From Blastocatellia bacterium (GTDB lineage Bacteria; Acidobacteriota; Blastocatellia; RBC074): DNA of 59,550 nt. This document shows positions 20,878 through 41,193 of this stretch, piece by piece. Location of the stretch: positions 1 through 59,550 of the forward strand of contig JBGAPB010000004.1 of NCBI GenBank assembly GCA_044221525.1. Direction: 5' to 3'. Below the pieces are notes generated by a model. It had not been told where the DNA came from, did no database searches, and worked only from the letters and a program-made list of their open reading frames with translations. Made by a program: the position numbers and the translations under genes. Each line of letters opens with the position of its first letter. The stretch's first letter is position 1.

Positions 20878-20957
<80 letters not shown>

Positions 20958-32801: not shown

Positions 32802-32878
32802 AAGTACAGTTCGCTGTTGGCAGTTCACAGTAAAAGAAAGCATCAAGTTACTGCGAACCGTGAACTGCCAACTCTCCG

Positions 32879-34506: not shown

Positions 34507-34660
34507 CGCAGATATGCAGTACGGGGAGCGTCAGCGACCTGCGTATCTCTCTGCTCAGATCATCGAGATCAATAACCGCATCGCTCCATGGTCGCTCTCA
34601 GATATAGCCGTACACTCGTTCAGCCAAGCTCAGGTCGCTAACGCTCCCCGTACCGCATCA
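34507..34660. repeat. REP doublet (REPIN-like) copy A, 3' of the RAYT gene
   Basis: The inverted arms tgcagtacggggagcgtcagcgacctgcg (34515-34543) and caggtcgctaacgctccccgtaccgca (34631-34657) have an 87-nt spacer. Copy A is roughly 93% identical to copy B. Confidence 0.85.
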
Positions 34661-35182
34661 ATCGCCTAAATCAGGAATCAAATTGTCACCTTGATGATTG
34701 AGTACGTAATCGCAGGCGCGTTCAACCTGCGGTGATCTCCACAAATACCGCCTGCTGCCATGTTCAGCCCAAGGCGACAGCTTCCCTTTCCAAACTCCGC
34801 CAGAGCGCATGGCCTTCGTCGCATAAGCCTTGAAATCGTTGAGAATCTTTTCCGGTTTGCAAAAAGCCGAAACGACAACGTGAACGTGATTGGTGCGAAC
34901 ATTGATTGCTCGCAATTTCCATCCACGATGCTCACAAACCTCTCGAACAGCTTGATCAACAATCACGCGACGGGCCTCGTTAAGTTCAACCGGAGCCTGT
35001 TTCAACCGTCGCCGCTCTTCTTGCTCGCGTTGCTTGTCCGTCGGATAAAAAGGTGTGCCGTATGTATTGTAGAGGTTGTCTACTGATCCTCTTTCGTCGC
35101 CGTGAAGCCAGGTGCCGTAACAGCGGAAAGTGATCAGGTAAGCCAAGGGAATGCGACTCAGGCTGAATTCCTCATCAAACAT
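34658..35182 (-). CDS. IS200-like Y1 HUH transposase of the REP-associated (RAYT) type
   Basis: 174 aa from the ATG at 35182 (MFDEEF...). The HUH motif is NHVHVVVSA, with candidate Tyr residues in RRYLW and CDYVLNHQG. It is flanked on both sides by REP doublets, and its stop codon lies inside copy A. Confidence 0.8.
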   Translation of the reverse strand: MFDEEFSLSRIPLAYLITFRCYGTWLHGDERGSVDNLYNTYGTPFYPTDKQREQEERRRLKQAPVELNEARRVIVDQAVREVCEHRGWKLRAINVRTNHVHVVVSAFCKPEKILNDFKAYATKAMRSGGVWKGKLSPWAEHGSRRYLWRSPQVERACDYVLNHQGDNLIPDLGD

Positions 35183-35193
35183 CACTATCTCCA

Positions 35194-35349
35194 CGCAGAT
35201 AAATGCAGTACGGGGAGCGTCAGCGACCTGCGTCTCTCTCTGCTCAGATCATCGAGATCAATAACCCCACCGCTCGATGGTCGCTCTCAGATATAGCCGT
35301 ACACTCGCTCAGCCAGGCTCAGGTCGCTTACGCTCCCCGTACCGCATCA
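35194..35349. repeat. REP doublet (REPIN-like) copy B, 5' of the RAYT gene
   Basis: Arms at 35204-35232 and 35320-35346. This is a direct copy of 34507-34660. Its distal end supplies the TGA stop of the WD40 reading frame. Confidence 0.85.
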
Positions 35350-35683
35350 AGCGGTGTATTTGGCCAGCACTTCGGCGACGGCTTCGGGCGAGTAAAATTC
35401 CTTGACCAGAGATTCCGCCGGATAGTAAGTCAGTTCTTCCATCCCCGTGTAACCCAGATAGCGCATGCCTTCGGGGCTGGCGTCAAAGCGTCCATCCGGC
35501 AGCAAATCCAGCCACGCTCCCGGCCCAAAATAATATCGAAATAAAAACGTTTGGCACGTCGCCAGGTCCCAAAATTGCAGACGACCGGCCACGCCAACGC
35601 TGACCAGAGACTTACCACCCGGCGAAAACGCGACGCTGTAAACCGCCCCCATATTTCCAGTTAACGTCGCCAGCAATTTGCCG

Positions 35684-36061
35684 GATTTGACATCCCACAG
35701 CTTGACCGAGTTGTCATAACTTCCGCTCGCTACCATCTCGCCGTCTTCCCTAAACGCGACTGAACTGACTACGCTTGAGTGGCCGCTCAGCGTTCGAATC
35801 TCTTTGCCCGATTTGACATCCCACAGCTTGACCGATTTGTCATCACTTCCGCTCGCTACCATCTCGCCGTCTTCCCTAAACGCGACTGAACTGACTACGC
35901 TTGAGTGGCCGCTCAGCGTTCGAATCTCTTTGCCCGATTTGACATCCCACAGCTTGACCGAGTTGTCAGAACTTCCGCTCGCCAGCATCTCGCCGTCTTC
36001 CCTAAACGCGACTGAATTGACATAGCTTGAGTGGCCTTCCAAAACGCGAAGCAACACGCCA
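35684..36061 (-). repeat. Three tandem 126-nt (42-aa) WD40 repeat units, nearly identical at the nucleotide level
   Basis: The units start at 35684, 35810 and 35936. Units 1 and 2 differ at only a few positions. The encoded repeat is SGHSSVVSSVAFREDGEMVASGSxDxSVKLWDVKSGKEIRTL. Confidence 0.9.
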
Positions 36062-36776
36062 TCTTCGCTTCGGTACAGGTATATGTTTCCGTCAGCTCCG
36101 CCCGCGGCAACGATTGATCCATCTGGACTGTAACTGACCGCGTAAGCGGTAAAACCTGGGGCATACTGGACGATTGGCCGCAACTGTTTTGCGTCAATCA
36201 GGCCGGGCAGTGTTAAACCACGAACGTTATCGAGTTTGGCATTGAGGAAGCTTTCAGGGCTGGCATCTTTGGCGTTTCGGAAATTGCAACCGCTCAGGTC
36301 AGACTCTTTGAATGACATTCTGGCCAAAAAGGCTTCGGTAAAATCAGCATCAACGACAGAAGCATTTTCGGCGCTGGCATCATCCAGCCCAGCGAAATAA
36401 AAACGACCTGATCCAAAGTCGAATGGTTGAGCTTGGCGGCTTTCAGCTCGGCGCCCGTAAAATCCGCGCCAGTCAAATTCGCACATTCCAAAACGACTTC
36501 CTGCAATTTTGCTGCGACCAAATCTGCTCCGGCGGGAATACGACCGGCGAGCGCCGCTTTCAGCTTGGGCACATCGGAAATCTCTTCCTCCATTCCGCAG
36601 CGAATCCGCGCCGACCAGTACAACAACTGCAAAGCATTTTCCGAAACATTGGCTTGATACTTATTCCGCAGAATCTCCTGCAACGGCTCTCGCATCGCAT
36701 CGGCTTCATCAAGCTGAGCCAGAAAGAAGATCGTCTTCTGATCGTAACGGCGCGTGTTCAACACTTCGTGCAAAAC

Positions 36777-36862
36777 TGCGGTACGGGGAGCGTCAGCGAC
36801 CTGCGCCTCGCTCGATGTAAGTGCCGCAGACGACTCAGGTCGCTCACGCTCCCCGTACTGCA
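36777..36862. repeat. REP doublet copy C (short spacer, inverted orientation) embedded in the NACHT-WD40 reading frame
   Basis: The arms are tgcggtacggggagcgtcagcgacctgcg (36777-36805) and caggtcgctcacgctccccgtactgca (36836-36862). The element translates in frame as ...LQYGERERPESSAALTSSEAQVADAPRTAV... Confidence 0.85.
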
Positions 36863-37940
36863 ATGCGGCGGCGATCTTTTTCGCCACAAAGAATTCACCG
36901 AACGACCGATGCATAAACCCAAAATTGCCGTTGTCGTCGCGCTTCAGGAAGCTGGCTCCCCGCATCGCTGGCGATGTCGGCGATTTCTTCGTCGCCGATT
37001 TCTATCTTCTGATCGGCTACCAGCTTTTCAACAAACGGAACCAGTTCGCGGTAATGGACTGACTGCTTTTTCATCTCGCCACATCCGCCAAGCCAGTTCA
37101 ATCATCAACGCAAGTTTGGTGTTTCGGTCAAGATTGAATTTGCGGCCTTTCCCTTCTTCGCGATCAATCCAGATGTTGGTGTAAACGTTGTAAAGCTTGG
37201 CCGCGTTGACCTCTTCGCCTGGCTTCAGCTTCGGCAAGGTCTTGACGACCATATCCAGCAACAGCGGGCGCGTAGCCAAATCCTTCAGGTTGTAAATCTC
37301 CTGAATCTTTCGCCAGTCAGCGGCGTGGTCTTTTCGGCCGAGCTTTCCGCAGATAGCCTTGAATCTTTTTCGTCGTCGAATTCCTGCAGGAAAACGACTT
37401 CGGCGGTAGAGCGCTGGCGGAGTTCGCGGTAAAGGTCAGTTTCGGTTTCAGACAATCGCGGGCCTTCGCCGATGACTTTGACCTGTTCGGTGCGGTCTTT
37501 GAAGTAATGAGTGCGGCAGGTGAGTATGACTTTGCCCTGCAAGTCTGCGGCGCGGAAATTGTTCTGCGTGTCCTCCCAGCGAATGCGGTCGGCCATTTCG
37601 TCAAAGGCGTCGAAAAACAAAACGACTTTACCCAGCCGCACCAGATGTTCAAAACGAGTGAAGCTGATGTCGCGCAAACCTCGGCGGGCAAAGTGATTGA
37701 TGACAATGCCTTCCAGCGAAAATTCCTTGCGGACTTCTTTCAGCGGAATCAACACCGGAGCCGGGTGCCTGAGCGGATCATCACGAAAACTGCGCGCCAG
37801 GTTGTAAGCCAGAAAACTGGCCAGCGTAGTTTTGCCCGTCCCCAAATCACCAAGAATCACCAACTGATTTCGGCGCTCTTCGCCCAGCCATTTGCTCAGG
37901 TGTTCGAGCGCGGGCAACCGTTCGTAGGTGATGTCGGTCA

Positions 37941-38870
37941 TCAGATCAGGCCGGATGAACCAATCATCTCCGCCCATTTTTCCTCGGCGTGCTTTTCGTA
38001 TTCGGCAATCAAACCATCGGCGTAATTGTCCAGCGGCACCAGTTCGCGCAGTAGTTCAGGATAGGTGACGCAATCAATGCCGACTTCTTCCAGCGCGACT
38101 CGCGTGTCGGCGGCGAAGCCTTGCGACGAAACAGCTATCCAACGATGGCGAGGCAATTTTGTTTGCGCCAAGGCTTGTTGAGCCAGAATCTGATTTCGTC
38201 CGTCGGCAGTGATGCGCGTGTCCTTGCATTCGACAATAAACTCAACGTTTGCCCCGCCAAGTTTCTGCCGAATCATCAAATCAATCTGAACTCCGCTGAG
38301 TTCGGTGTCGGCTTTGACCTCAAATCCCAACAAGCGATACAGCGCGGCGACTTCATCTTCAAAGCGTTTGCCTTTGCGATAGCTGCGAGCGCCGCGTTCG
38401 GCCTTGGTCAGTTCGTGTTCGCGGAATTCAAATTCCTCGTGGTCGCGGGTCTGAAACTCTCTGCGAGGCAGGTCAATCGCTTCGATCAACTGGCGAAAGC
38501 GAAGCTCGAAATCATCCTCGTTTTGGAAATCAATAGCTTTGGCATTAACCAGCAGGCTGGGAACTTTGCATTCTCTTCGTTTCAGCGGTATCAGCCGACG
38601 CTCGCGATTCTCCGGGTCAGTGGCAACAACCGCCGCTAACTCCGAGCGCGGCCAGGGATTGGCAAAATAATCCTGCGACATCACGATGGCGACTTTGCGG
38701 CTAACATCCAACGCATCCATAACTTGAAGTGTTATGTTTTCGGTATCTTTGATTGTTTCGTGAGCGAAGAAGACCTTTACGCCAGCACTATTCAACCGAC
38801 GATAAAGTCGCTCTGCCCAAATGCGGTCGGCTTCGGTATAGCTGATGAATAGATCAAACTGTTCAGACAT
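37941..38870 (-). CDS. TIR domain + Mrr-like PD-(D/E)xK restriction-endonuclease domain protein
   Basis: 309 aa. The TIR blocks are DLFISYTEADRIWAERLYRRL, VAIVMSQDYFANPWPRSELAAV and LIPLKRRECKVP. The nuclease block is GKRFEDEVAALYRLLGFEV...VQIDLMI...VEFIVECKD. The ORF overlaps the NACHT ORF by 37 nt. Confidence 0.8.
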   Translation of the reverse strand: MSEQFDLFISYTEADRIWAERLYRRLNSAGVKVFFAHETIKDTENITLQVMDALDVSRKVAIVMSQDYFANPWPRSELAAVVATDPENRERRLIPLKRRECKVPSLLVNAKAIDFQNEDDFELRFRQLIEAIDLPRREFQTRDHEEFEFREHELTKAERGARSYRKGKRFEDEVAALYRLLGFEVKADTELSGVQIDLMIRQKLGGANVEFIVECKDTRITADGRNQILAQQALAQTKLPRHRWIAVSSQGFAADTRVALEEVGIDCVTYPELLRELVPLDNYADGLIAEYEKHAEEKWAEMIGSSGLI

Positions 38871-38965
38871 AAGACGTGCCTTAGGAAAATTGATTGAAAC
38901 GATTAAGGGCTTTGGACTGCGAGCGGCAAATTACCATCAAGCTCCGGCTTGGCCAAGCGAACTGG

Positions 38966-39245
38966 GTACGCAGACCATGGGTTTCTGCACAAGTTTTTGC
39001 GCCGGAGGCGCAGCGGAAATTAGCCGGTGGTGAAGGCTTTGCGTAACCACCGGAAATGACGGCAAAAGACCAGCAAGCCCTGAAAGGGCGACAGACGGGG
39101 CTTGGTCCTTCGCCCTTTCAGGGCTGGCACCCCAACTTAACTTTATCCCGGTGGTTACGCTGCGCTCACCACCGGCTAATTTCCGCCATCCTTTCAGGAT
39201 GAAAACGGGTCGCCCAACTTGTGCATAAACCTATGGCGTGCGTAC
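38966..39245. repeat. 280-nt composite (nested) palindrome, MITE-like or a long rod-shaped RNA
   Basis: Four paired blocks are present. They are 38966-38995 with 39216-39245 (26/30), 39013-39033 with 39166-39186 (21/21), 39041-39053 with 39148-39160 (13/13), and 39077-39091 with 39110-39124 (15/15). The apical loop is 18 nt. Confidence 0.8.
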
Positions 39246-39335
39246 ACAGCTTTCGTGACAAGACAGAATCGGTTCATTACAATCCAAGCTTCTCATCCGC
39301 AGGACTTTTCAATTTCCCAATCAGGAGAGCAATAA

Positions 39336-40452: not shown

Positions 40453-41193
40453 ATGGCGATCACTCAGGAAGACAAGCTTCGGTACGAAGTCGAAAAGCTT
40501 GAATTGGAAATCAAAGAAAAGCGCCGCTCGTTCTTTAATCAACCAACATTCTGGATTCCGATGATCACCGTCGCAATTTCGCTGAGCGGCAATGTCTTTC
40601 AATGGAGCAATGCAAAAAACGAAAAGACTCTGGTTGAAATTCAAATTGCACAAGCCAAGCTGGATAAAGACAGGACGCAAATCCAACTGGACGCGCTGAA
40701 ACAACAGCTTCAAGATGCTCAGAGCATTTACGAATCAACCAACCAAAAAATCGCCGAAGCAGAAAGCCGGTTGAAAGAAGCAACGGAAAAGCTTTCTCAA
40801 TTTCAATCCCCTCAATTAAAGGCCGCCGCCGCCGAAGCAGGGCGGGTTTTGGCAGATGCAAGACAGATCAATCAACGCGCGATGGAAGGATTAAGAGCGA
40901 CCGAATCCATCGGCTCAGGTAAAGATGCGGCCTTGGCCAAGGCGAAAGAGCGAGAGGGTTTTGAGAAGTTAATTGCCGGCGATTACGATGGAGCCGCGCA
41001 GGCATTCCAGGCCGCAGATAACGCCAATCACAACTTTAATTCCGTTTCCGAATTGGCTCGATTGGTTAAATCAAGAAGAGCAGACCTGGATGACCCTGCG
41101 AAAAGAAAAGACGTCTTTCGGACTATTGTCACCAGATATTCGCTTGGTGCTCCTGCCGACTTGCTGAATAAGCTTGAAGAGATGTCAAAATAA
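40453..41193 (+). CDS. Hypothetical membrane-anchored coiled-coil protein
   Basis: 246 aa with one TM segment (FWIPMITVAISLSGNVF) and long heptad-like Q/E/K/A-rich stretches. Confidence 0.55.
   Translation: MAITQEDKLRYEVEKLELEIKEKRRSFFNQPTFWIPMITVAISLSGNVFQWSNAKNEKTLVEIQIAQAKLDKDRTQIQLDALKQQLQDAQSIYESTNQKIAEAESRLKEATEKLSQFQSPQLKAAAAEAGRVLADARQINQRAMEGLRATESIGSGKDAALAKAKEREGFEKLIAGDYDGAAQAFQAADNANHNFNSVSELARLVKSRRADLDDPAKRKDVFRTIVTRYSLGAPADLLNKLEEMSK

Follow-up and report, generated by a model that had tools for sequence, protein, structure and literature searches.

A broken TIR–REase–NACHT–pentapeptide–WD40 gene in a Blastocatellia genome: most likely a young pseudogene of an NLR-like family

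The DNA analyzed here (the window) is a stretch of 59,550 nucleotides (nt) from a Blastocatellia bacterium of the Acidobacteriota (NCBI GenBank assembly GCA_044221525.1, contig JBGAPB010000004.1, positions 1 to 59,550 of the forward strand). Three-frame translation of a 3.5-kb locus on its minus strand, flanked by pfkB and atpD-atpC, reveals the remnant of one gene for an NLR-like protein that combines a TIR domain, an Mrr-type restriction endonuclease (REase) fold, a NACHT NTPase, pentapeptide repeats and WD40 repeats. A first-pass annotation, made from the sequence alone, had described the locus as an effector gene coupled to a separate sensor gene and separated from a single fused frame by one missing A. 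The parts of the locus are the following.

35347–38870, minus strand: whole locus, one ancestral TIR-REase(Mrr)-NACHT-pentapeptide-WD40 gene, now distributed over three reading frames.
38484–38849, minus strand: TIR domain (Pfam), amino acids (aa) 8–129 of the first open reading frame (ORF), with a conserved Glu within NPWPRSELAAV.
38046–38372, minus strand: Mrr-type PD-(D/E)xK nuclease-fold domain (Pfam), aa 167–275, with FEDE ... QIDLMI ... VECKD.
36880–37977, minus strand: NACHT NTPase and winged helix, with GDLGTGKTT, FDAFDEM, TCRTHYF, RPLLLDMV and FMHRSFGEFF, interrupted by four frame breaks and a 12-nt deletion.
36265–36482, minus strand: pentapeptide-repeat beta-helix (Pfam Pentapeptide, 2.8e-8 in the window and 7.3e-16 in the intact orthologue P0001).
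35350–36160, minus strand: WD40 propeller (five Pfam WD40 matches, 1e-53) and conserved C-terminal tail (FGPGAWLDLLPDGRFD...).

The first ORF (37941–38870, minus strand) encodes 309 aa and contains, according to Pfam, TIR_2 at aa 8–129 and Mrr_cat at aa 167–275. Its TIR domain scores 1.6e-23 (83.9 bits) with TIR_2 and 2.6e-7 with TIR, and the bacterial TIR proteins TcpB and AbTIR are among its sequence matches in the PDB. The Glu of PWPRSEL, at the W-x-x-x-E position, is matched in the alignment by that of WPAREL in TcpB (PDB 4lzp). We take this aligned Glu to be the catalytic residue of NADase-type TIR domains; it is present in the window copy and retained in 28 of the 34 family members of the alignment. 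The Mrr_cat match reaches 25.9 bits (1.2e-5) in the window and 27.6 bits in P0001, for a cut-off of 21, and the four REase residues E171, D197, E214 and K216 are all found in the window copy and are kept in 26, 29, 27 and 24 of the 34 family members, respectively. Pfam, motifs and structure tests therefore agree with the TIR and PD-(D/E)xK Mrr-type core that had been read from this ORF. A second ORF of 230 aa, starting at ATG 37977, shares 37 nt with the end of the first and carries GDLGTGKTT, FDAFDEM and TCRTHYF, as had been seen before. Further downstream, a helical stretch lies between the winged-helix region and the pentapeptide repeats, and in an AlphaFold2 (AF2) model aa 781–872, the pentapeptide region, show one short strand per five residues. 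The WD40 blades include a 126-nt tandem array at 35677–36036 (2.9 copies, 95% identical, Tandem Repeats Finder), and the window has one 126-nt unit more than P0001; the near-identical units and this one-blade difference would fit a rapidly reshuffled sensor. The order from the N- to the C-terminus is thus TIR, Mrr-type REase fold, NACHT with winged helix, helical linker, pentapeptide beta-helix and WD40 propeller, and both the pentapeptide repeats and the approximately five WD40 blades of the first-pass annotation are recovered.

Along the gene the coding frame runs from 1 to 0 to 1 to 2 to 0 to 1 to 0, that is, through six changes. The lesions were placed by alignment of the DNA to the intact orthologue P0001 of genome L001.

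37966–37970 (approximately 37968), minus strand: break 1, −1, directly after the conserved Trp codon of EEKW.
37549–37553 (37551), minus strand: in-frame 12-nt deletion, by which ELSR is lost from NFRELSRAAD.
37366–37372 (37370), minus strand: break 2, +1, A5 where the orthologue has A4.
37331–37337 (37335), minus strand: break 3, +1, GGCCGAAAAG where the orthologue has GGCCAAAAG.
37067–37073 (37071), minus strand: break 4, +1, within an A5 run.
36963–36967 (36965), minus strand: break 5, −2, GCGATGC where the orthologue has GCGAAATGC.
36400–36406 (36404), minus strand: break 6, −1, at a T run within the pentapeptide repeats.

At least 90% of family members have the Leu of the deleted ELSR. 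With the base restored at break 6 the five-residue period is preserved (STLDQ VVFYF AGLDD), and six single-base edits of the window yield an ORF of 1173 aa that is collinear with the intact relatives; the locus and P0001 are collinear at 83.6% DNA identity. The run of five A at 37977–37981 does exist, but the expectation that one extra A in it would fuse everything is false, since there are six frame changes and a 12-nt deletion, and the first break lies after the Trp codon, outside the run. Because of the six breaks and the deletion the full protein cannot be made, and translation could give no more than the free TIR-REase fragment of 309 aa and some short pieces. Programmed frameshifting or phase variation was considered and rejected: the six breaks are of mixed sign, the runs do not exceed five bases, and the junctions are continuous in all relatives.

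Using the repaired N-terminal 859 aa as query, 94 homologues were found, many of them single polypeptides of 1,030–1,500 aa that cover 95–100% of the query. The intact orthologue P0001 (1136 aa, encoded at L001:10001-13411) is 84% identical to the query. The relatives come from Blastocatellia, Anaerolineae, Deltaproteobacteria including Ca. Magnetoglobus, Phycisphaerae, Verrucomicrobia and Chthonomonadaceae, and also from Chloroflexi and Planctomycetes. Among them TIR-REase-NACHT-pentapeptide forms a constant core, followed by a C-terminal part of about 4 to 13 WD40 blades. In three proteins (P0010, P0013 and P0026) precomputed Pfam annotation, the only source used for them, places a sigma-70 region 4 or an XRE-type HTH where the WD40 repeats would be; these C-termini suggest a transcriptional output or input of a TIR-REase-NACHT protein. 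One Blastocatellia metagenome-assembled genome (MAG), bins.148, has two family paralogues on different contigs (L014 and L019), so copy number is variable within the group. The apparent lack of a TIR domain in P0004 of genome L087 was discarded as a real difference, the missing stretch being a run of N in a scaffold gap.

These relatives bear directly on the reading as a working two-gene module, in which a TIR and Mrr effector gene would precede, with coupled translation, a distinct NACHT-pentapeptide-WD40 sensor gene, the two standing at most one frameshift away from a fusion. Such a module would account for a first ORF that is complete and has its catalytic residues, and for an ATG at 37977 that overlaps its end by 37 nt. 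However, the supposed sensor gene is broken five further times, and the near-full-length relatives are all one polypeptide: the junction EE(R/K)W.G.DWF between TIR-REase and NACHT is unbroken in every one of them, and no split version occurs among the loci examined. We consider two working genes highly improbable. Intact relatives show, in one chain of about 1,170 aa, the order TIR-nuclease-NACHT-pentapeptide-WD40, which the first-pass annotation had obtained by a conceptual fusion, and what it had separated into effector and sensor genes is one gene broken in six places.

The NTPase was accepted as a NACHT because of its D[GAS]hDE signature, its winged-helix His, its fold matches and its scores with two related Pfam models. 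Its Walker A motif reads GDLGTGKTT in the window, and all 34 family sequences have the same G341, G344, G346 and K347. The defining NACHT motif is the D[GAS]hDE Walker B signature (10.1101/2022.07.19.500537); all 34 sequences have it in the form DAFDE or DGFDE, and the window reads FDAFDEM. The winged-helix His, H658 (FMHRSFGEFF in the window), is shared by at least 90% of the family, and its position in the motif suggests equivalence to H443 of NLRC4. The related models NPHP3_N (29.0 bits, cut-off 24.8) and nSTAND3 (31.2 bits, cut-off 27.2) both score above threshold. When an AF2 model of the NTPase module (P0067; mean predicted local distance difference test value, pLDDT, 84) was compared with the PDB by Foldseek, NOD2 came first with an E-value of 7.7e-15, ranks 1–48 were all animal NACHT receptors (NOD2, NLRC4, NLRP3, NAIP5, NLRP9, NLRP2 and NLRP7), and Avs4 appeared first at rank 49. 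Foldseek with the whole protein is dominated by WD40 propellers and Apaf-1 and is uninformative on the NTPase clade, and phmmer with the NACHT module gave no match among PDB sequences.

Concerning the position of the family among known systems, Kibby et al. list in their Table S1 two clades, 10 and 11, composed of NACHT, Pentapeptide and BetaPropeller/WD40 (10.1101/2022.07.19.500537). The NACHT of clade 11 usually follows a 'NACHT-associated inactive REase' (NA-iREase1/iREase), and the variable N-terminal modules comprise NNH5, EAD4, HTH, TIR, TIR_2, caspase, PNPase, SIR2, calcineurin and trypsin (10.1101/2022.07.19.500537). The window family shares with clade 11 the REase fold directly before the NACHT, the pentapeptide module between NACHT and propeller, and the TIR/TIR_2 N-termini that are listed there; it differs in that the REase of clade 11 is annotated as inactive, whereas the window subfamily retains E..D..ExK. 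By tblastn we also found cyanobacterial relatives (Calothrix parasitica, Nostoc, Microcoleus and others) with NNH5, a dead REase and NACHT, at 28–30% identity over about 800 aa; the Calothrix parasitica gene fits the clade 11 entries by species and architecture. Judged by architecture and sequence similarity, the window family most likely belongs to Kibby clade 11. Neither the pentapeptide module nor the overall layout is therefore new, and a pentapeptide module before the propeller, a combination that the first-pass annotation did not recognize as characterized, is the norm for the group. The exact string TIR+REase+NACHT+Pentapeptide+WD40 is not found in Table S1, and the group is catalogued without experimental characterization.

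Among experimentally studied proteins, bNACHT25, which is anti-phage by experiment, likewise carries an N-terminal Mrr-type REase on a NACHT switch, and it has the Walker A, the D[GAS]hDE signature and the His of the winged-helix domain in common with the window family (10.1101/2022.07.19.500537; PMC12169576). This enterobacterial protein lacks the TIR, the pentapeptide repeats and the WD40 repeats, all three of which are present in the window family, and no significant sequence match of the bNACHT25 type was obtained in the PADLOC or NCBIfam scans. The Avs/AVAST proteins (e.g. Avs4, PDB 8dgf) follow the same tripartite plan, in which a STAND NTPase links an N-terminal effector (Mrr, TIR or others) to C-terminal sensor repeats. 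Their repeat sensors bind phage proteins and are TPR-like, in contrast to the pentapeptide and WD40 repeats found here, and they form a different STAND clade, the animal NACHT NLRs matching the NTPase of the window family far better than Avs4. Apaf-1, the best full-length structural match, also has a STAND NTPase with a C-terminal WD40 propeller, but is an AP-ATPase with a CARD and not a NACHT protein. Fungal NACHT-WD40 proteins of the HET-E/NWD type share the NTPase and the WD40 repeats, without the REase fold or the pentapeptide module. Near-identical tandem WD40 units are a hallmark of the HET-E-type fungal NACHT proteins.

Whether the REase fold represents a second effector was judged from the region before Walker A, aligned across 29 relatives. 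In cyanobacterial relatives the REase fold is present and its catalytic positions are replaced (by Ala, Glu, Arg and Ile). E..D..ExK is retained in most acidobacterial, deltaproteobacterial and other non-cyanobacterial relatives as well as in one Bathyarchaeia MAG. Upstream of the REase, the relatives with E..D..ExK have a TIR domain, a ParA/MinD-like P-loop domain or nothing, and the cyanobacterial ones have NNH5. In this alignment the REase fold is the constant partner of the NACHT, and the TIR appears as one of several exchangeable N-terminal modules. As both active sites are conserved, a double output of NAD+ hydrolysis and DNA cleavage is plausible here; as the REase is dead in cyanobacterial relatives, nuclease activity cannot be assumed for the clade as a whole. 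The two-effector sensor of the first-pass annotation thus stands as a plausible proposal for this subfamily, in which E..D..ExK is kept, but since the catalogued REase is a constant and usually inactive module of the NACHT, two active effectors can only be inferred.

The surroundings of the gene were compared with those in related genomes. In L001 the gene is flanked, as in the window, by pfkB and atpD-atpC, and the region is 78–84% identical at the DNA level with the NLR gene included; in a third genome, L087, the NLR-like gene also adjoins pfkB. The G+C content of the locus is ordinary. From this synteny in three genomes and the ordinary G+C it follows that the gene is a vertically inherited resident of the lineage rather than part of a recent island. 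Recent horizontal acquisition was accordingly rejected, the gene having diverged as much as the flanking housekeeping genes (79–84% DNA identity) at ordinary G+C.

The question that remains for the window copy itself is whether it has decayed or was assembled wrongly. All six breaks fall within one gene of 3.5 kb, and the other long ORFs of the window appear uninterrupted; in atpD, pfkB and TAL every codon has its counterpart in the orthologous gene. Contigs of the species at 98% ANI exist in JGI 3300045319 and SRR18313640. Two conspecific short-read contigs, 98% identical to the window over 3.3 kb of flank, differ from it by substitutions and a few intergenic indels, without any single-base or homopolymer indel noise. 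Moreover, a 12-nt deletion in residues conserved by the family is untypical of sequencing error. The competing explanation is that the gene is intact in the organism and that the six breaks are local errors of assembly or consensus, such as would arise in a poorly polished long-read or mixed-strain consensus over a repeat-rich paralogous gene. Several of the breaks lie at or beside short homopolymers, the gene contains REP and WD40 repeats, and paralogues within one genome are known from L014 and L019 of the same MAG; the substitution pattern described below and the fact that the lone conserved-site loss is the 12-nt deletion point in the same direction. This explanation has to accommodate zero breaks in some 56 kb elsewhere in the window, 10 kb of which was compared at the level of codons, flanks that match the conspecific short-read contigs without single-base indel noise, and 2-nt and 12-nt deletions that are untypical of homopolymer errors. 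We regard it as unlikely, though it keeps appreciable weight, and a real and recent inactivation as fairly probable.

Taken together, we read the locus as the remnant of a single NLR-like gene of about 1,170 aa, of the clade 11 NACHT kind, that is broken and most likely a young pseudogene, and we assign to this reading a probability of roughly 0.7. The window copy was under purifying selection until very recently, as the dN/dS and the equal branch changes given below show. A number of results weigh against this reading. As regards decay, the ratio of non-synonymous to synonymous substitution rates (dN/dS) relative to the orthologue is 0.118 for the NLR-like gene and 0.064–0.090 for neighbouring genes. 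With three different outgroups, the amino-acid changes on the window branch and on the orthologue branch number 50 vs. 47, 45 vs. 50 and 39 vs. 41, so that both branches have changed equally and the window branch shows no excess. No highly conserved position is substituted in the window copy, its sole conserved-site loss being due to the 12-nt deletion, and seven lesions without an excess of substitutions are more indels per substitution than neutral decay would usually leave; this combination implies either a very recent, indel-rich decay or a local problem of the consensus. No independent copy of the region was found that would confirm the frameshifts: look-ups of exact products (the 309-, 230- and 379-aa ORFs and pfkB) gave no match, nor did two metagenome pattern scans over breaks 2 and 3 in which the broken or the repaired form was accepted. 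As regards the class of the NTPase, the window fragment (22.8 bits) and P0001 (25.7 bits) both stay just below the 26.7-bit cut-off of the Pfam NACHT model PF05729. As regards defence, none of the 27 tested bNACHT genes has this architecture (10.1101/2022.07.19.500537), and neither PADLOC nor NCBIfam has a defence model for STAND proteins that the window fragments or the intact homologues match above threshold. PADLOC matches are restricted to the level of TIR domains and WD40 repeats, with no STAND, NLR or Avs model among them, and the top NCBIfam match of the NTPase, DS8_antiphage, has 28.6 bits for a cut-off of 790. Finally, known defence genes are absent from six of six neighbourhoods of intact homologues, in which metabolic, transport and regulatory genes are found instead. 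Intact single-polypeptide relatives, of the kind that the first-pass annotation had proposed to look for, are common, but the six loci do not show the defence neighbourhoods that were to be scored along with them.

Given these housekeeping-type neighbourhoods, an immune role rests on architecture and domain content and on the conserved catalytic residues. A different role has been considered for the intact members, independently of whether the window copy is dead, namely that they are NLR-like switches whose main function is not anti-phage but self/non-self or kin discrimination, or regulated cell death in social or filamentous bacteria. The highly similar WD40 repeats, reminiscent of the fungal HET-E-type NACHT proteins, would agree with such a function, as would the six metabolic or housekeeping neighbourhoods free of defence genes and a syntenic position that is stable in three related genomes rather than in a variable island. 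The distribution of the family centres on Blastocatellia, filamentous cyanobacteria, Deltaproteobacteria including Ca. Magnetoglobus, and Chloroflexi, and this fits the 'multicellular bacteria' pattern (PMC7159879, PMC8195603). On the other hand, TIR and REase effectors and NACHT proteins are anti-phage in the bacteria tested (10.1101/2022.07.19.500537), and a missing defence-island context is a weak negative for large standalone genes. A main role other than phage defence is thus conceivable and, in our estimate, improbable.

The locus is also marked by repetitive extragenic palindromic (REP) elements, by the gene of a REP-associated tyrosine transposase (RAYT) and by a large hairpin.

34658–35194, minus strand: RAYT gene (IS200-like Y1 transposase, Pfam Y1_Tnp), between 135-nt REP doublets at 34519–34653 and 35208–35342.
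36781–36858, unstranded: REP doublet in the coding sequence, two convergent GTACGGGGAGCGTNAGCGACCTG units, in frame, free of stops and translated QYGERERPESSAALTSSEAQVADAPRTAV.
38962–39249, unstranded: nested hairpin of 288 nt with four inverted-repeat pairs, in the intergenic (promoter) region between pfkB and the NLR gene.

A scan of the window for REPs yielded six units where none is expected, arranged in three convergent pairs that all lie within 2.4 kb of the RAYT gene. Two pairs flank the RAYT gene, and the third, which the first-pass annotation had overlooked, is embedded in the NLR coding sequence, with the end of the winged helix (GEFFVAKKI) on one side and LNTRRYDQ on the other. The spacing between these two motifs is 39 nt where there is no insert and 111 nt, with the same REP arms, in both the window and L001 (L001:11984-12094 region). 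In L087 (P0004) it is 108 nt, occupied by an unrelated palindrome, GTGTCAGTAGCCCG...CGGGCTACTGACAC, at the identical site, and P0050 has a tandem pair of that type. As the insert is common to the window and to the intact L001 orthologue, it must have been acquired before the two genomes split and did not kill the gene. The stretch is poorly modelled (pLDDT of about 50 at aa 680–700), which is consistent with a flexible loop. Both 23-nt arms (36781–36803 and 36836–36858) are identical in the window and L001, the spacer has diverged and the gene is about 84% identical; this suggests that the arms may be under constraint or homogenization independent of coding. Rickettsia palindromic elements (RPE) are inserted in frame in protein-coding genes. 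Like RPE, the present element is a short palindromic repeat, in frame, translated and tolerated within a conserved protein; unlike RPE, it is a RAYT-associated REP doublet, it occurs in an acidobacterium, and two unrelated palindromes share one site across genomes.

At the RAYT site L001 has a REP-containing spacer without the RAYT gene, and the conspecific metagenome contig L085 has the RAYT. The 288-nt hairpin, which folds as DNA with −107.7 kcal/mol (z = −11.2), is absent from L001 and L087; specificity to the window lineage is limited to the RAYT gene and this hairpin. The hairpin could be an insertion similar to a miniature inverted-repeat transposable element (MITE) that disrupted the promoter. 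In the Rfam scan no known RNA family was matched by the hairpin or by the REPs; the sole Rfam match in the window is one tRNA gene at 20881–20952 on the minus strand. The REP/RAYT unit and the large palindrome reported at the borders of the locus are thus real. The notion of an accessory island holds for the RAYT gene and the hairpin, which are lineage-specific, but not for the gene between them, which is syntenic in two related genomes and of ordinary G+C.

Two other differences were noted in the vicinity. Between pfkB and the transaldolase gene lies an ORF of 246 aa (40453–41193), coiled-coil/transmembrane-like, that is not found at this position in L001 and L087. It was rejected as island cargo, since it is 67% identical to a gene at the same place in L082 and is therefore ancestral, with losses in some relatives. 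Between atpD and atpC the window misses 7 nt at 32820 and at 32859 with respect to the two conspecific contigs; the missing stretches are mutually complementary (ACTGTTC and GAACTGT), and this looks like a paired change in the arms of one hairpin.

Returning to the protein, animal NLRs and the bNACHT and Avs proteins studied by experiment serve as models for a probable mechanism of the intact members (10.1101/2022.07.19.500537; 10.64898/2026.01.04.697583). In the resting state the pentapeptide/WD40 region would hold the molecule inactive, and it would also bind the trigger, a phage protein or another molecule; binding would lead to nucleotide exchange in the NACHT and to NTP-dependent oligomerization. 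The N-terminal domains, once clustered, would then be switched on, the TIR hydrolyzing NAD+ and, in this subfamily, the REase cleaving DNA, and the loss of NAD+ or the cutting of DNA would stop or kill the cell. A broader proposal joins these features: the acidobacterial/deltaproteobacterial branch would be a two-warhead NLR with active TIR and REase and would show the ancestral state of the REase that is dead in the catalogued cyanobacterial members, and its linker site would accept translated palindromes of the REP type that are maintained or recurrently targeted by the RAYT/REP system and possibly form a regulatory hairpin at the RNA level. We hold this combination to be doubtful.

As for its significance, the locus should be annotated as one disrupted NLR-like gene rather than as a TIR/nuclease gene and a NACHT gene, and it should not count as a working defence system in this genome. 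The translated REP insertions provide a small and clean case of mobile palindromic repeats that are tolerated in a conserved protein. In this family a TIR domain is joined to a REase fold whose active site appears intact, and members are frequent in soil Acidobacteria as well as in other bacteria of complex lifestyle. An intact orthologue of the P0001 type would be a reasonable candidate for studying phage sensing by WD40/pentapeptide NLRs, the firing of two N-terminal domains, and the change of the REase from enzyme to scaffold.

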